NCBI RefSeq assembly: GCF_003334355.1
Contig: NZ_QOWP01000004.1
Reading direction: 5' to 3' (one strand)
Source of the DNA: Escherichia coli
GTDB lineage: Bacteria > Pseudomonadota > Gammaproteobacteria > Enterobacterales > Enterobacteriaceae
DNA length: 64,000 nt
The notes under the pieces were generated by a model that made no database searches, had not been told where the DNA came from, and saw only the letters and a list, made by a program, of their open reading frames with translations. The stretch's first letter is position 1; the number at the start of each line of letters is the position of its first letter. Positions 1 through 25,738 of the stretch are shown piece after piece. The position numbers and the translations under genes are program-made.

Positions 1-125
1 TGCAGTTGCCATGTTTTACGGCAGTGAGAGCAGAGATAGCGCTGATGTCCGGCAGTGCTTTTGCCGTTACGCACCACCCCGTCAGTAGCTGAACAGGAGG
101 GACAGCTGATAGAAACAGAAGCCAC
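1..125 (-). CDS. insA: IS1 InsA (N-terminal part, truncated by window edge)
   Basis: GTG start at 125..123; minus-strand translation [41 protein letters not shown] matches InsA. Confidence 0.85.
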
Positions 126-180
126 TGGAGCACCTCAAAAACACCATCATACACTAAATCAGTAAGTTGGCAGCATCACC
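1..180 (-). mobile_element. IS1: IS1 insertion sequence, terminal ~180 bp (inverted repeat plus 5' part of insA); element continues beyond the window start
   Basis: Reverse complement of 1..180 reads GGTGATGCTGCCAACTTACTGAT... followed by the insA start, matching the IS1 left end as remembered; terminal repeat ends at 180. Confidence 0.85.
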
Positions 181-366
181 CGTTTTGTGAATAATGTTCA
201 CAATCCCTGCATTTTAAAATAATTTATAATGATGCAGCCCATAACATTAATCACGTGAATATAAAGATATTCCGTTAATAATTTTAGCTGCGGGTATTTA
301 TATCATAATAAATAAAGCCAATGGCAGAATATCTACCACTGGCTTTGTTTAAGAGTGGAAACCGAA

Positions 367-2313
367 TTAATTAGCAGAATCCGTATTATCTTTTTGGGGC
401 TTTGCCGCTTTTTTCACTCGTTTATTGGGTGCTTTTTTAACTGACTCCCCACCCGGTGCCACAATTCCTCTGAACTGCCTGACCGGAGTGCTACGCGCCT
501 GATCAATCAGTTGGTAAAGCGTCCCCACCAGCGGCTGCATAAAGTCCTGATAGCGACACTGCTTTTCGCTGATTTGCGTCAGCACCGATTCCCAGTGCGC
601 GGTCATGTCCGGTCGCGTAGCCATTTCTGGCAGCGAATGGAATAACGCTTTTCCGGCGTCGGTGGAGTGGATATAGCGCCCTTTTTTGGTGAGGAAACCA
701 CGCTTGAACAACAGTTCAATAATCCCGGCACGCGTTGCTTCTGTCCCCAGACCATCGGTCGCACGAAGGATCTTTTTCAGATCTTTGTCCTGCACAAAGC
801 GCGCGATCCCGGTCATCGCCGAAAGCAGTGTTGCATCGGTAAAATGGCGCGGCGGCTGGGTTTGCCGCTCTACCACTTCACCTTTTTCACACAGCAACTC
901 ATCGCCTTTCGCCACCACAGGCAGTGGCGTGCCGTCGTTTTCTTCATCGCGCTCTTTGCTGCCTAACAGCGTGCGCCAGCCTGCTTCAGCAAGAAAACGC
1001 GCTTTAGCGACAAATTTGCCTTTGGCAATGTCCAGTTCGATAACACACTTGCGGAACACCGCATCCGGGCAGAATTGCATCAGATACTGACGGGCAATCA
1101 GGTTATAGACCTTCGCTTCGTTCTCCGTCAGGTTGATCGCAGAACTCCGTGCGGTCGGAATGATGGCGTGGTGCGCATCGACCTTTTTGTCATCCCAACA
1201 GCGGTTGCGTATATCTGGATCTACCACTGGCTGCGGCAACAGATCCGGTGCATGAACACTGATGGCATTCATCACCGCGTGGCGTCCGGCAAAATGTTCT
1301 TCTGGCAAATAGCGACAATCAGAACGCGGATAAGTGATTAGCTTGTGCGTTTCGTACAGTTTCTGGCAGATATCAAGCACGTTCTGCGCGCTCAGACCAA
1401 AGCGTTTTGCCGCTTCAATCTGCAACGCCGAAAGCGAAAACGGCAGCGGCGCGGATTCTGATTCCCGTTTATCGTTATAGCTGGTGACAATAGCCGGTTG
1501 ACCACTAATGCGGTTAACCACATGCTCCGCCAGTGGACGATGTAACAAGCGCCCTTCTTCATCCTGGTACGGTTCACACGCTTCGCTCGGTTGCCAGATA
1601 GCGGTAAACCGCTCATCGGCAGGTGTCACGATATGCGCTTTGACTTCAAAGAAGTCTTTCGCCACGAAGTTTTCAATCTCTTCATCGCGGCGCACCACCA
1701 GCCCGAGCACGGGTGTCTGCACGCGCCCCACGGAAAGCACGCCCTGATAACCAGCATTGCGACCGAGAATGGTGTAAGCACGGGTCATATTGATGCCGTA
1801 CAGCCAGTCGGCACGCGCTCGCGCCAGCGCAGAAACGCACAGCGGTACAAACTCACTGTTGGAACGAAGACGGTCGATCGCCCGCTCAACCGCCTGCGGG
1901 TTCAGGTCGTTTATCAAGCAACGCTGCACCTGCTGGCGCTTTTCCGGTGCCAGTTGCAGATAGTCCAGCACTTCATCCACCAGCAATTGCCCTTCACGAT
2001 CCGGGTCCCCGGCGTGAACGATTTCGCTGGCTTCATGCAGGAACCGTTTGATGACGTTAAGTTGTTTGGTCACGGAGGGTCGGGGCAGTAATTGCCACTT
2101 TTCCGGGACAATCGGCAAATCCGCAAGATTCCAGCGCGCATAGCGGCTGTCGTAGGCGTCTGGCTGCGCCTGCTCAAGCAGGTGACCGATACACCAGGTC
2201 ACCACCTGACCATTACCGCACTCGATAAAGCCATCGCCTTTCCGGTGCGGTTTGGGCAGGACATCAGCAATGGCGCGCGCCAGACTCGGTTTTTCGGCAA
2301 TAAACAACCGCAT
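367..2313 (-). CDS. topB: DNA topoisomerase III
   Basis: ORF 367..2370; conserved N-terminus [19 protein letters not shown] begins at ATG 2313; [11 protein letters not shown] active-site Tyr region present. Gives 648 aa from this start; reference length not verified. Confidence 0.93.
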
Positions 2314-4189: not shown

Positions 4190-6046
4190 ATGCGAACCCT
4201 TTGGCGATTTATTGCCGGATTTTTTAAATGGACGTGGCGTCTGCTGAATTTCGTCCGTGAAATGGTACTTAACCTGTTCTTTATTTTCCTCGTACTGGTT
4301 GGTGTGGGGATTTGGATGCAGGTCAGTGGTGGTGATTCGAAAGAAACGGCCAGTCGTGGCGCACTGCTGCTGGACATTTCTGGTGTGATCGTCGATAAAC
4401 CCGACAGTTCTCAGCGGTTTAGTAAATTAAGCCGCCAGCTGCTTGGTGCCAGTTCCGATCGTCTGCAGGAAAACTCACTGTTTGATATCGTCAACACTAT
4501 TCGCCAGGCGAAGGACGACCGCAATATCACCGGTATTGTGATGGATCTGAAAAACTTCGCAGGCGGCGACCAACCGTCTATGCAGTACATCGGCAAAGCT
4601 CTGAAAGAGTTTCGTGACAGCGGGAAACCGGTTTATGCCGTTGGCGAGAACTACAGCCAGGGGCAATATTATCTCGCCAGTTTCGCCAATAAAATTTGGC
4701 TGTCTCCGCAAGGCGTGGTTGATCTGCACGGCTTTGCCACCAACGGTCTGTACTACAAATCGTTGCTGGATAAGCTGAAAGTTTCCACCCATGTGTTCCG
4801 CGTGGGTACGTATAAATCTGCCGTTGAACCGTTTATTCGTGATGATATGTCACCGGCAGCCCGCGAAGCTGACAGCCGCTGGATTGGTGAGCTGTGGCAA
4901 AACTATCTGAATACTGTTGCCGCTAACCGGCAGATCCCTGCTGAGCAGGTATTCCCTGGCGCGCAAGGGTTGCTTGAGGGTTTAACCAAAACCGGTGGCG
5001 ATACCGCGAAATATGCACTGGAAAACAAGCTGGTCGATGCACTGGCATCGAGTGCGGAAATCGAAAAAGCACTGACCAAAGAATTCGGCTGGAGTAAGAC
5101 TGATAAAAATTATCGCGCCATCAGTTATTACGATTACGCATTGAAAACGCCGGCAGATACCGGTGACAGCATCGGTGTCGTCTTTGCTAATGGCGCAATT
5201 ATGGATGGCGAGGAAACTCAGGGGAATGTTGGCGGTGATACCACTGCGGCACAAATCCGCGACGCTCGCCTTGACCCGAAAGTGAAAGCGATTGTCCTGC
5301 GTGTTAATAGCCCAGGCGGCAGCGTTACCGCGTCTGAAGTGATTCGCGCTGAACTGGCAGCAGCCCGGGCAGCGGGTAAGCCTGTGGTTGTATCGATGGG
5401 CGGCATGGCGGCATCTGGTGGTTACTGGATTTCCACGCCAGCTAATTACATTGTGGCTAACCCCAGCACCCTGACCGGTTCTATCGGTATCTTCGGCGTG
5501 ATCACCACCGTAGAAAATAGTCTGGATTCGATTGGTGTTCATACCGATGGTGTCTCAACTTCACCGCTGGCAGATGTTTCTATCACCAGGGCACTGCCGC
5601 CGGAAGCACAGCAGATGATGCAGTTAAGCATTGAGAATGGCTATAAACGCTTTATCACGCTGGTTGCTGATGCGCGTCATTCGACGCCGGAGCAGATTGA
5701 TAAAATCGCCCAGGGCCACGTCTGGACCGGTCAGGATGCAAAAGCTAACGGGCTGGTCGATAGCCTCGGGGATTTCGATGATGCAGTTGCCAAAGCAGCA
5801 GAGCTGGCAAAAGTGAAACAGTGGCATCTGGAATACTACGTTGATGAACCGACCTTCTTCGACAAAGTGATGGACAACATGTCTGGTTCTGTCCGGGCAA
5901 TGTTGCCAGATGCGTTCCAGGCCATGTTACCTGCACCGCTGGCCTCGGTAGCCTCTACTGTTAAAAGTGAAAGCGACAAGCTGGCCGCGTTTAACGACCC
6001 ACAAAACCGTTATGCGTTTTGCCTGACCTGCGCCAACGTGCGTTAA
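4190..6046 (+). CDS. sppA: Signal peptide peptidase A (protease IV)
   Basis: ORF 4046..6046; ATG at 4190 preceded by GGAG gives the 618 aa SppA beginning [14 protein letters not shown]. Confidence 0.93.
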
Positions 6047-6212
6047 GTCTTGTACTGAGTGGCCGACAGATCGTCGGCCACATTATTTTTTACGTCGACG
6101 AATCCTCTTCCCGCTGTCTCGCCCCATATTTCCTTATCCGCATAGTATCAGGTGCGCTCCTCCTGCCTCACGTATATACTTTTGCTCTTTCGATATCATT
6201 CATATCAATATC

Positions 6213-7229
6213 ATGCAAAAGAAATCAATTTACGTCGCCTACACGGGCGGGACCATCGGGATGCAGCGTTCCGAGCAGGGTTATATTCCGGTGTCAGGTC
6301 ATCTACAACGCCAACTGGCGCTGATGCCGGAATTCCATCGCCCGGAGATGCCAGATTTCACCATTCATGAATATATGCCGCTGATGGATTCTTCTGATAT
6401 GACGCCAGAAGACTGGCAGCATATTGCTGAAGATATTAAAGCGCACTATGACGACTATGATGGTTTTGTCATTCTGCACGGCACCGACACGATGGCGTAT
6501 ACCGCCTCTGCGCTGTCGTTCATGCTCGAAAATCTCGGTAAACCGGTCATTGTGACAGGGTCACAAATCCCGCTGGCTGAGTTACGCTCTGACGGACAAA
6601 TTAATCTGCTGAATGCGTTGTACGTTGCGGCGAATTATCCGATCAACGAAGTAACGCTCTTTTTTAATAATCGACTGTATCGCGGCAACCGCACCACCAA
6701 AGCCCATGCCGATGGTTTTGATGCGTTTGCCTCTCCAAACCTTCCTCCGTTACTGGAAGCAGGTATCCATATACGTCGTTTGAATACGCCACCCGCCCCG
6801 CACGGTGAAGGGGAATTGATCGTTCATCCAATCACGCCACAACCAATTGGCGTAGTGACGATTTATCCGGGGATTTCTGCTGACGTCGTGCGCAATTTTC
6901 TGCGCCAACCGGTGAAAGCATTGATTCTGCGCTCATATGGCGTGGGTAATGCGCCACAAAACAAAGCCTTCCTGCAGGAATTACAAGAAGCCAGCGATCG
7001 CGGTATTGTGGTGGTCAACCTGACACAATGTATGTCCGGTAAAGTGAACATGGGTGGTTATGCCACCGGTAACGCCCTCGCCCATGCCGGCGTTATTGGC
7101 GGTGCAGATATGACTGTAGAAGCCACGCTAACCAAACTGCATTACCTGCTGAGCCAGGAACTGGATACTGAAACCATTCGCAAGGCCATGAGCCAAAACC
7201 TGCGCGGCGAACTGACGCCGGATGATTAA
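6213..7229 (+). CDS. ansA: Cytoplasmic L-asparaginase I
   Basis: 338 aa; TGGTIGM threonine motif near the N-terminus. Confidence 0.95.
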   Translation: MQKKSIYVAYTGGTIGMQRSEQGYIPVSGHLQRQLALMPEFHRPEMPDFTIHEYMPLMDSSDMTPEDWQHIAEDIKAHYDDYDGFVILHGTDTMAYTASALSFMLENLGKPVIVTGSQIPLAELRSDGQINLLNALYVAANYPINEVTLFFNNRLYRGNRTTKAHADGFDAFASPNLPPLLEAGIHIRRLNTPPAPHGEGELIVHPITPQPIGVVTIYPGISADVVRNFLRQPVKALILRSYGVGNAPQNKAFLQELQEASDRGIVVVNLTQCMSGKVNMGGYATGNALAHAGVIGGADMTVEATLTKLHYLLSQELDTETIRKAMSQNLRGELTPDD

Positions 7230-7239
7230 GGAGACTGCA

Positions 7240-7881
7240 ATGCCCCCTCGCGCCCTGTTACTGGTCGATTTACAAAATGATTTCTGTGCTGGTGGCGCGC
7301 TCGCCGTGCCGGAAGGTGACAGTACGGTGGATGTCGCTAACCGCCTGATTGACTGGTGCCAGTCGCGCGGTGAAGCGGTTATCGCCAGTCAGGACTGGCA
7401 CCCGGCGAATCACGGCAGTTTTGCCAGTCAGCACGGTGTCGAGCCTTATACGCCAGGCCAACTCGACGGTTTGCCACAAACCTTCTGGCCAGATCACTGT
7501 GTGCAGAACAGTGAAGGCGCACAATTACATCCGTTACTGAACCAAAAAGCGATCGCAGCGGTGTTCCATAAAGGCGAAAATCCTTTAGTTGACAGTTACA
7601 GTGCCTTTTTTGATAACGGCCGTCGGCAGAAAACCTCGCTCGATGACTGGTTGCGCGATCATGAAATCGATGAATTGATCGTTATGGGCCTGGCTACTGA
7701 CTATTGCGTGAAGTTTACCGTGCTGGACGCGTTACAGTTAGGTTATAAGGTGAACGTGATTACCGATGGTTGTCGTGGCGTGAATATCCAGCCCCAGGAC
7801 AGTGCGCACGCGTTTATGGAGATGTCAGCAGCTGGGGCAACGCTATATACGCTGGCAGACTGGGAAGAGACGCAGGGGTAA
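7240..7881 (+). CDS. pncA: Nicotinamidase / pyrazinamidase
   Basis: ORF 7222..7881; ATG 7240 gives 213 aa MPPRALLLVDLQNDFC; isochorismatase-fold motifs including catalytic Cys (TDYCV). Confidence 0.93.
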   Translation: MPPRALLLVDLQNDFCAGGALAVPEGDSTVDVANRLIDWCQSRGEAVIASQDWHPANHGSFASQHGVEPYTPGQLDGLPQTFWPDHCVQNSEGAQLHPLLNQKAIAAVFHKGENPLVDSYSAFFDNGRRQKTSLDDWLRDHEIDELIVMGLATDYCVKFTVLDALQLGYKVNVITDGCRGVNIQPQDSAHAFMEMSAAGATLYTLADWEETQG

Positions 7882-7890
7882 TTTTACGCT

Positions 7891-7921
7891 GGCCTACAAT
7901 TCTGTACTGGCATTGTAGGCC
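7891..7921. terminator. Inverted repeat between convergent pncA and ydjE (possible bidirectional terminator)
   Basis: ggcctacaat ... attgtaggcc 10-bp inverted repeat followed by A/T-rich tract. Confidence 0.5.
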
Positions 7922-7973
7922 AAATAAAACACGTCAGTGGTACATCTGGCAATTGATGCCATCAACGAAAGAT

Positions 7974-9332
7974 TTAATTCACCTCAGAAATCTCTTCCAA
8001 CGACACCTTCCGCGTTTCGATGCCAAAAATGGAGAGAACCAGCGCACAGAGCAATAACATGACACCAAGCACCATAAACACCGTGATCGACCCATAATGT
8101 GTTAATAATGCCGCAACGCCATAGGGCGTGAAAACTGCGACGACCCGTCCGACGGCATTAACGAAACCCGAACCGCGCAGGCGTAAATGCGTTGGCCAAA
8201 GCTCCGGGATATAAACCGCCGACGCGAAGCAAACATACATGTATAAAAAGAAGATCATCACCAGACCATAGATTAAAATCGCCCACTCTGTAGTCTGAAT
8301 TGAATAGATATAGCCTAACACGGCAATAATAATAAGTAAGGCGGAGCCAAATAATCGACGAGGAAAATGATCAATAATTAATGCCGCAATAAATATTCCT
8401 ACCGGAGCGCCAATCATAATAACAGCGGTCATTAATATTGATTTATCGACATCAATGCCGGAGTTAACAAATATGGTCGGTATCCATACGGTGATGGTAT
8501 AAAGCGAAATGTTCATTGCAATTAAAACAGTAATCGCGACTAATGTACGTCGTAACATTTCCCCTTTAAACAGGAGCCAGAAGGTACCCTTGATTACCTT
8601 AACCTTGCTGTTGCTCTGGTTCAAAGTAAGCTGGGGTAAACGAATACTCTTCTCTCTTTCAATTTGCTGCTCTACTTCACGAAGTTGGCTTTCTGCACCG
8701 GCGATTTGCCCTTTCCCTGCCAGCCATCGTGGCGACTCAATAAAGTATTTACCTGAGAGAAGCCAGGCTAACAGTATGCCAATACCCCCCAACAGAAACA
8801 TTATCCGCCAACTAAAAAAAGCGATAACCACCACGCCTATCGCCGCAGATAGCATGGGCGACCAGTTACCAACAAATGAGAGCCGCGCGGACCATTTTCC
8901 ACGCACCGTCGCGGGGATAAACTCCGTAAATGAGGCATAGCCAACCATAATCAGCGCCCCCATTCCTGTTCCCATGAGGAAGCGAAAGAAAATGAGCCAG
9001 TACATATCAGGGACAAAAGCGGCCCCTGTTGCAGCAATTCCGACGATGAGAAGATTTATGCGAAACGCCCTGCGCCGCCCAAAGTAGTCACCAATAAACC
9101 CACCAGTAAGTGAGCCGATGAAATAACCAAACATTAATGCCGAGGTAAAGGCGGCATTGAGGAAATTATTTGACCATCCATTGCTTACCAGCTTTGCTAA
9201 GACGACATTACCTGAGTAACTCAAAAACCCCGTTAATAACAGACTAAAGCTTATTATACCAAATATACGATAATGAAACCGGGCCAAAGGCAAGCGGTCC
9301 AGTCTTGCGCCAATTTGATCATATTGTTCCAT
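7974..9332 (-). CDS. ydjE: MFS-family transporter YdjE
   Basis: ORF 7974..9437 (TTG-initiated in the track); internal ATG at 9332 gives 452 aa MEQYDQIGARLDRL; multiple predicted TM segments. Confidence 0.9.
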   Translation of the reverse strand: MEQYDQIGARLDRLPLARFHYRIFGIISFSLLLTGFLSYSGNVVLAKLVSNGWSNNFLNAAFTSALMFGYFIGSLTGGFIGDYFGRRRAFRINLLIVGIAATGAAFVPDMYWLIFFRFLMGTGMGALIMVGYASFTEFIPATVRGKWSARLSFVGNWSPMLSAAIGVVVIAFFSWRIMFLLGGIGILLAWLLSGKYFIESPRWLAGKGQIAGAESQLREVEQQIEREKSIRLPQLTLNQSNSKVKVIKGTFWLLFKGEMLRRTLVAITVLIAMNISLYTITVWIPTIFVNSGIDVDKSILMTAVIMIGAPVGIFIAALIIDHFPRRLFGSALLIIIAVLGYIYSIQTTEWAILIYGLVMIFFLYMYVCFASAVYIPELWPTHLRLRGSGFVNAVGRVVAVFTPYGVAALLTHYGSITVFMVLGVMLLLCALVLSIFGIETRKVSLEEISEVN

Positions 9333-25592: not shown

Positions 25593-25738
25593 AACTATCA
25601 GCCAGGTCATTATCGCCTGGCTGATTTTTAGCTTACTGTAAATTATCTCATTTATTACATACATTAGCTTACAATCGCTTTAAATATGACAGCATAACCT
25701 TTACATAATTTAGTTCCAGAAAACAATCATTCGGAAAA

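Follow-up and report, generated by a model that had tools for sequence, protein, structure and literature searches.

The window, by which we mean the whole 64-kb stretch of Escherichia coli DNA analysed here, starts inside an ordinary IS1 end, belonging to a mobile element that is common in E. coli. We consider it highly probable that this end is part of a complete IS1 that settled beside topB by ordinary transposition, most probably together with a deletion of the type carried by strain PSS-12. At this position the IS1 copy is rare and lineage-specific. The junction presents no new element type or mechanism; beyond bookkeeping its significance is small, and it adds no mechanism to what is known of IS1.

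The reverse complement of window positions 1-180 aligns with nucleotides 1-180 of IS1A from MG1655, with 179 of the 180 bases identical. The sole mismatch, C to T at nucleotide 127 of the element, falls on the third position of insA codon 24 and changes ACC to ACT, both of which encode threonine. The original prediction, which described an IS1 left end in reverse complement with its terminal repeat, 41 insA codons and one synonymous difference, therefore holds base for base. The 23-bp left terminal inverted repeat (IRL) has one match in the 64 kb without mismatches, and still only one when three mismatches are allowed; it was recovered in none of 100 shuffles. As a terminal repeat at the boundary of an IS1-family element should, it ends where homology to empty-site relatives begins. 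An insA gene with an N-terminal zinc finger about 55 nt from IRL is also present. Its GTG start codon corresponds to nucleotide 56 of the element, and the reading frame leaves the window edge after 41 codons, which translate to residues 1-41 of MG1655 InsA. Against the NCBIfam model of the IS1/IS1595 zinc-binding domain (NF050000), this fragment scores 43.5 bits, above the cut-off of 28. The window copy has the identical IRL, insA start and first 41 codons of the 768-bp IS1 (IS1A/IS1R type) of E. coli and Shigella, and differs from MG1655 IS1A in its chromosomal position and in the one synonymous change within the visible part. A promoter-like site in IRL lies where we take the known insA promoter of IS1 to be (Table 1).

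Table 1 Features around the IS1 end, and IS1 events in the neighbouring accessory module of other strains. Positions are those of the window unless another sequence is named.
Feature	Position	Strand	Remarks
IS1 left end, IS1A-like, 180 nt	1..180	-	Element runs on to the left of position 1
insA, 5' part, 41 codons + 2 nt, N-terminal zinc-finger region	1..125	-	GTG start at 125
Promoter-like site in IRL, CTGCCA-16-TATGAT	146..173	-	Reads into insA; consensus scan, 9/12 matches
IS1 left terminal inverted repeat IRL, GGTGATGCTGCCAACTTACTGAT, 23 bp	158..180	-	Exact match
Putative hybrid promoter-like site, -35 TTGGCA (167-172, IRL), 17-nt spacer, -10 AATAAT (190-195, flank)	167..195	+	Consensus scan, 10/12 matches
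First 9 bp of chromosomal flank, CGTTTTGTG	181..189	.	One duplication copy if the insertion is simple
7-5-7 palindrome, TTGTGAA-TAATG-TTCACAA	185..203	.	4 bp from IS end, in AT-rich spacer
topB intrinsic terminator-like hairpin	314..346	-	15-pair stem, then T-rich tail
topB, DNA topoisomerase III, 648 aa	367..2313	-	ORF list; RefSeq annotation of identical PSS-12 and E41 DNA
Hsp70/J-domain module region	E41, locus L004, 4305-7945		Left of window position 1
IS1 junction in NH-21	window-equivalent 210		2,733-bp deletion; IS1 variant, 95.7% identity
IS1 junction in MLI023K1, MLI023K2 and PRO_A-1412	window-equivalent 341 (L005 6181)		In topB terminator stem; 701-bp deletion
IS1 in FAM21845	Hsp70 gene		Simple insertion; 9-bp duplication
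IS1 in 873.10 and PRO_A-1462	Hsp70 gene, other positions		Inferred from BLAST match spans
IS1 in HUM3355 and UPEC_U013	J-domain gene		Simple insertions

Alignment of the window with PSS-12 and with the empty-site genomes KL53 and E41 places the boundary between IS and chromosome at 180/181. The empty-site sequence runs ...ATATATATT up to this point and continues as CGTTTTGTGAATAATGTTCACAA... beyond it. The predicted placement of the terminus just downstream of topB is confirmed, as the topB stop codon is followed by 186 bp, including the undamaged terminator-like hairpin, before the IS end is reached. The topB gene itself is uninterrupted, runs in the same direction as insA, and encodes a protein 97% identical to K-12 TopB except in its C-terminal tail. 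Relatives that lack the insertion have an accessory Hsp70-family gene here, and the insertion point falls 55 bp upstream of its start codon. The spacer has a G+C content of 31%, compared with 49% for the window, which agrees with the well-established bias of IS1 toward AT-rich targets.

When all 5,426 complete RefSeq E. coli genomes were searched by megablast with window 1-700, the junction appeared as one uninterrupted match of 100% identity in a single genome, that of PSS-12 (NZ_AP027697.1), a strain from human faeces in Ecuador. Here RefSeq already annotates it as 'IS1-like element IS1A family transposase'. The exact 41-nt junction, AGTAAGTTGGCAGCATCACCCGTTTTGTGAATAATGTTCAC, has no match among the GTDB representative genomes. 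MG1655 carries gdhA-ynjI-topB without IS1, and the window regains homology to K-12 no earlier than position 452, within the 3' end of topB, so that K-12 lacks the target sequence as well as an IS1 at this site. The expectation of a strain-specific IS1 absent from MG1655 is thereby borne out. The accompanying guess of an E. coli B lineage is contradicted by REL606, which likewise has gdhA-ynjI-topB and neither an IS1 here nor the target sequence. Commensal, animal and environmental strains (PSS-12, E41, OW1E2 and MLI023K1) are the nearest relatives. Within this clade the IS1 load varies widely: the places matching window 1-700, which are mostly IS1 copies and in one case the topB flank itself, number 1 in OW1E2, 21 in PSS-12 and at least 40 in E41. 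Found in one complete genome out of 5,426, the junction is usable as a lineage marker.

In PSS-12, both ends of the element are visible. It is a full-length IS1 of 768 bp that aligns with IS1A over its entire length at 99.1% identity (7 substitutions), and it is 100% identical to window 1-180 at the same junction. The IS1 family is characterized by a length of about 768 bp, by insB' expressed through a -1 programmed frameshift and by a matching right inverted repeat. The PSS-12 copy ends in IRR, GGTAATGACTCCAACTTATTGAT, and is annotated with the insA/insB' programmed frameshift transposase. A simple IS1 insertion is flanked by a target-site duplication of 9 bp, occasionally 8-14 bp. Of the two structures that the original prediction proposed to look for, PSS-12, the genome in which we looked, thus has the other IS1 end and lacks the 9-bp duplication, its flanks reading GTTACTGGC and CGTTTTGTG.

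Relative to E41, PSS-12 is missing 2,364 bp (L004 5637-8000). The missing segment comprises a 55-bp leader, the whole 566-aa Hsp70-family gene and the first 612 bp of the J-domain/SEL1-repeat gene, which encodes 647 aa and overlaps the Hsp70-family gene. The lack of a duplication is what a deletion derivative is expected to show and is therefore no argument against the identity of the IS1; together with the deletion it indicates that a description as a simple insertion is probably incomplete. Where an IS lacks its target duplication, an adjacent deletion or IS-IS recombination is often the cause (PMC11708052). PSS-12 fits this description in that a single IS1, with no duplication, joins sequences that an empty-site relative has 2,364 bp apart, and the same pattern is seen at this locus in NH-21 and MLI023K1.

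We propose that IS1 arrived by ordinary transposition into the AT-rich spacer between topB and the accessory Hsp70/J-domain operon. The window would begin 180 nt inside this complete element, with IRL facing the 3' end of topB and the transposase genes parallel to topB. The element would subsequently have lost, or would never have had, the structure of a simple insertion, most probably as in PSS-12; the event as a whole was probably an insertion combined with an IS1-associated deletion. The deletion may have arisen through IS1-mediated adjacent deletion, that is, intramolecular replicative transposition with one end fixed, or through recombination of IS1 copies in direct repeat. The end product seen in PSS-12 fits both routes and by itself can tell neither which of them acted nor which junction is older. 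With PSS-12 serving as proxy, we regard it as fairly likely that the window strain shares the same far end, in which case it would read IS1 nt 181-768 and then ...CCAGTGGAGACAAGTTACTGGC, within the J-domain gene. The outcome would be an accessory operon that is lost or disconnected, with topB and its terminator untouched. The PSS-12 configuration removes the Hsp70/J-domain operon as a unit. A simple insertion, too, would part the operon from any promoter in 181-313, since the insertion point lies between this spacer and the Hsp70 start.

The window and PSS-12 are 99.97% identical, with 19 SNPs over 64 kb, and PSS-12 has an IS5 of about 1.2 kb between yeaH and cdgI (at window ~25,710-25,713, with a 4-bp overlap representing the duplication) that the window lacks. 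The window is thus not PSS-12 itself but represents another strain of that clade. In the 25.5 kb compared (window 181-25,700), three private SNPs each were counted for the window, PSS-12 and empty-site E41, and none is shared pairwise. This star gives no independent sister grouping, so SNP placement of the window with PSS-12 rather than with E41 is uninformative and the IS1 junction is the only link between them. A strain that is distinct from PSS-12 and, across these 25.5 kb, no closer to it than to E41 could instead carry a simple IS1 insertion with a CGTTTTGTG duplication and an intact operon, PSS-12 being a later deletion derivative. In that strain IS1 and CGTTTTGTG would be followed by AATATATAT... 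and the Hsp70 gene; such a state would show IS1 followed by ...ATATATATTCGTTTTGTG, with both the 9-bp duplication and the Hsp70 gene intact. Adjacent deletions begin from an existing IS with one end fixed, and the right junction shared by the two strains could be that end. Furthermore, FAM21845 and HUM3355 each have a simple IS1 insertion with a 9-bp duplication in this module. However, none of the 5,426 complete genomes contains a precursor, which would be either junction with a target duplication; either junction is found only in PSS-12, and this sole carrier has the deletion. We consider a simple insertion in the window strain possible and rather unlikely.

A common origin of the junction also has to be weighed against independent IS1 hits at the same nucleotide in the two strains, with a hot spot created by the palindrome next to the junction or by AT-rich bent DNA. 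The star-like SNP phylogeny would accommodate this, IS1 junctions cluster nearby (NH-21 and MLI023K1), and the two module genes contain at least five simple insertions. Yet all of these other events are at different nucleotides, and 180/181 is never reused. The first 180 nt of the element are identical in the window and PSS-12, including the T at nt 127, a variant absent from the IS1 of MLI023K1. Identity by descent is far more parsimonious, and we judge independent hits to be very improbable. It is still harder to credit that the junction is an assembly artefact, for instance the end of a draft contig at a collapsed IS1 repeat. The window does start inside a multicopy repeat and has no perfect match among complete RefSeq genomes, but the same junction is found in the independent, complete circular assembly of PSS-12, and it coincides exactly with the final base of IRL, where genuine transposition must place it.

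The palindrome that the original prediction placed directly against the IS end is real. KL53 and E41, both with an empty site, carry it unchanged, as do FAM21845 and HUM3355, in which no IS occupies the junction site; K-12, REL606 and the B2-type UPEC_U013 lack it. Its presence in genomes without an IS at the site identifies it as native target DNA, neither a product nor a part of IS1, and the earlier description is refined accordingly. Inverted repeats of this kind are not rare: the window contains 74 with perfect 7-bp arms and loops of 3-8 nt, and about 0.9% of window positions have a 7-bp-arm inverted repeat starting within 10 bp. As a DNA hairpin, the palindrome has an energy of -5.1 kcal/mol. 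We compared it with a CRP site (TGTGA-N6-TCACA) and found TGTGA at 186-190 and TCACA at 198-202, 7 nt apart instead of the canonical 6. A conserved operator for the Hsp70 operon was considered too, but the palindrome is not kept upstream of the same gene in UPEC_U013. It has no above-threshold match to a known RNA in Rfam. CRP spacing, Rfam and the comparison with UPEC_U013 thus yielded no evidence that the palindrome has a function or guides IS1.

The best Rfam match was a sub-threshold one to His_leader at 239-351 on the plus strand, with 25.5 bits (E = 0.064) where the gathering score is 49. This match covers the AT-rich spacer and the topB terminator and is almost certainly due to chance, driven by the terminator hairpin.

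The operon next to the insertion belongs to a variable accessory module. Genes for an Hsp70-family protein and a J-domain/SEL1-TPR protein are located between gdhA and topB in 369 of the 5,426 complete E. coli genomes. The Hsp70 protein gives a DnaK/HscA-like score that is far below equivalog cut-offs, and its partner carries SEL1/TPR repeats. The pair was also considered as a known anti-phage system, for which PADLOC returned marginal, partial hits of 17 and 26 bits. The 3.9-kb module has received at least eight independent IS1 events in different strains (loci L001, L005, L006, L007, L011 and L012; E41-equivalent 5296-8161). These include at least five simple insertions and three deletion junctions (2,364, 2,733 and 701 bp); the 9-bp duplication was verified in FAM21845, HUM3355 and UPEC_U013. 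All IS1 events found at the locus are co-oriented with the window IS1. We do not interpret this as an orientation bias, as it is an ascertainment artefact of joining BLAST pieces on one strand only.

With a median of 10 places per genome that match IS1, a rough estimate predicts about three IS1 carriers in 370 genomes, compared with at least ten seen. The excess is modest, as for an AT-rich, dispensable accessory locus. A more far-reaching reading is that the Hsp70/J-domain operon, perhaps because it is costly, toxic or of a conflict/defence type, is under recurrent selection for inactivation with IS1 as the usual agent. We think this improbable; if it were true, the window IS1 would be one of many parallel knock-outs and not a neutral insertion. 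For annotators, the gdhA-topB interval is variable and IS1-prone, and its accessory operon is often broken or deleted.

The IS1 end may also contribute to a promoter. A consensus scan detected a putative hybrid site, a pattern match with its -35-like hexamer in IRL and its -10-like hexamer in the flank, that points outward and antisense to topB; the same scan found no such site in the empty-site sequence. Fusion promoters formed by IS1 are on record (Prentki et al. 1986, listed in PMC9330008). The site in the window resembles them in combining an outward -35-like hexamer in the IS1 end with a -10-like hexamer in the flank, 17 nt apart. In contrast to them, it aims into the 3' end of a convergent gene, topB, and not toward a silent gene.

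Two further observations concern the 3' end of topB. In MLI023K1, MLI023K2 and PRO_A-1412, the IS1 in the terminator stem is a different copy, without the T at nt 127, and could alter topB 3'-end formation in these strains. The variable segment reaches into topB itself, with its boundary at about 452, and the last ~28 residues of TopB differ by locus type, giving proteins of 648 aa or 653 aa.
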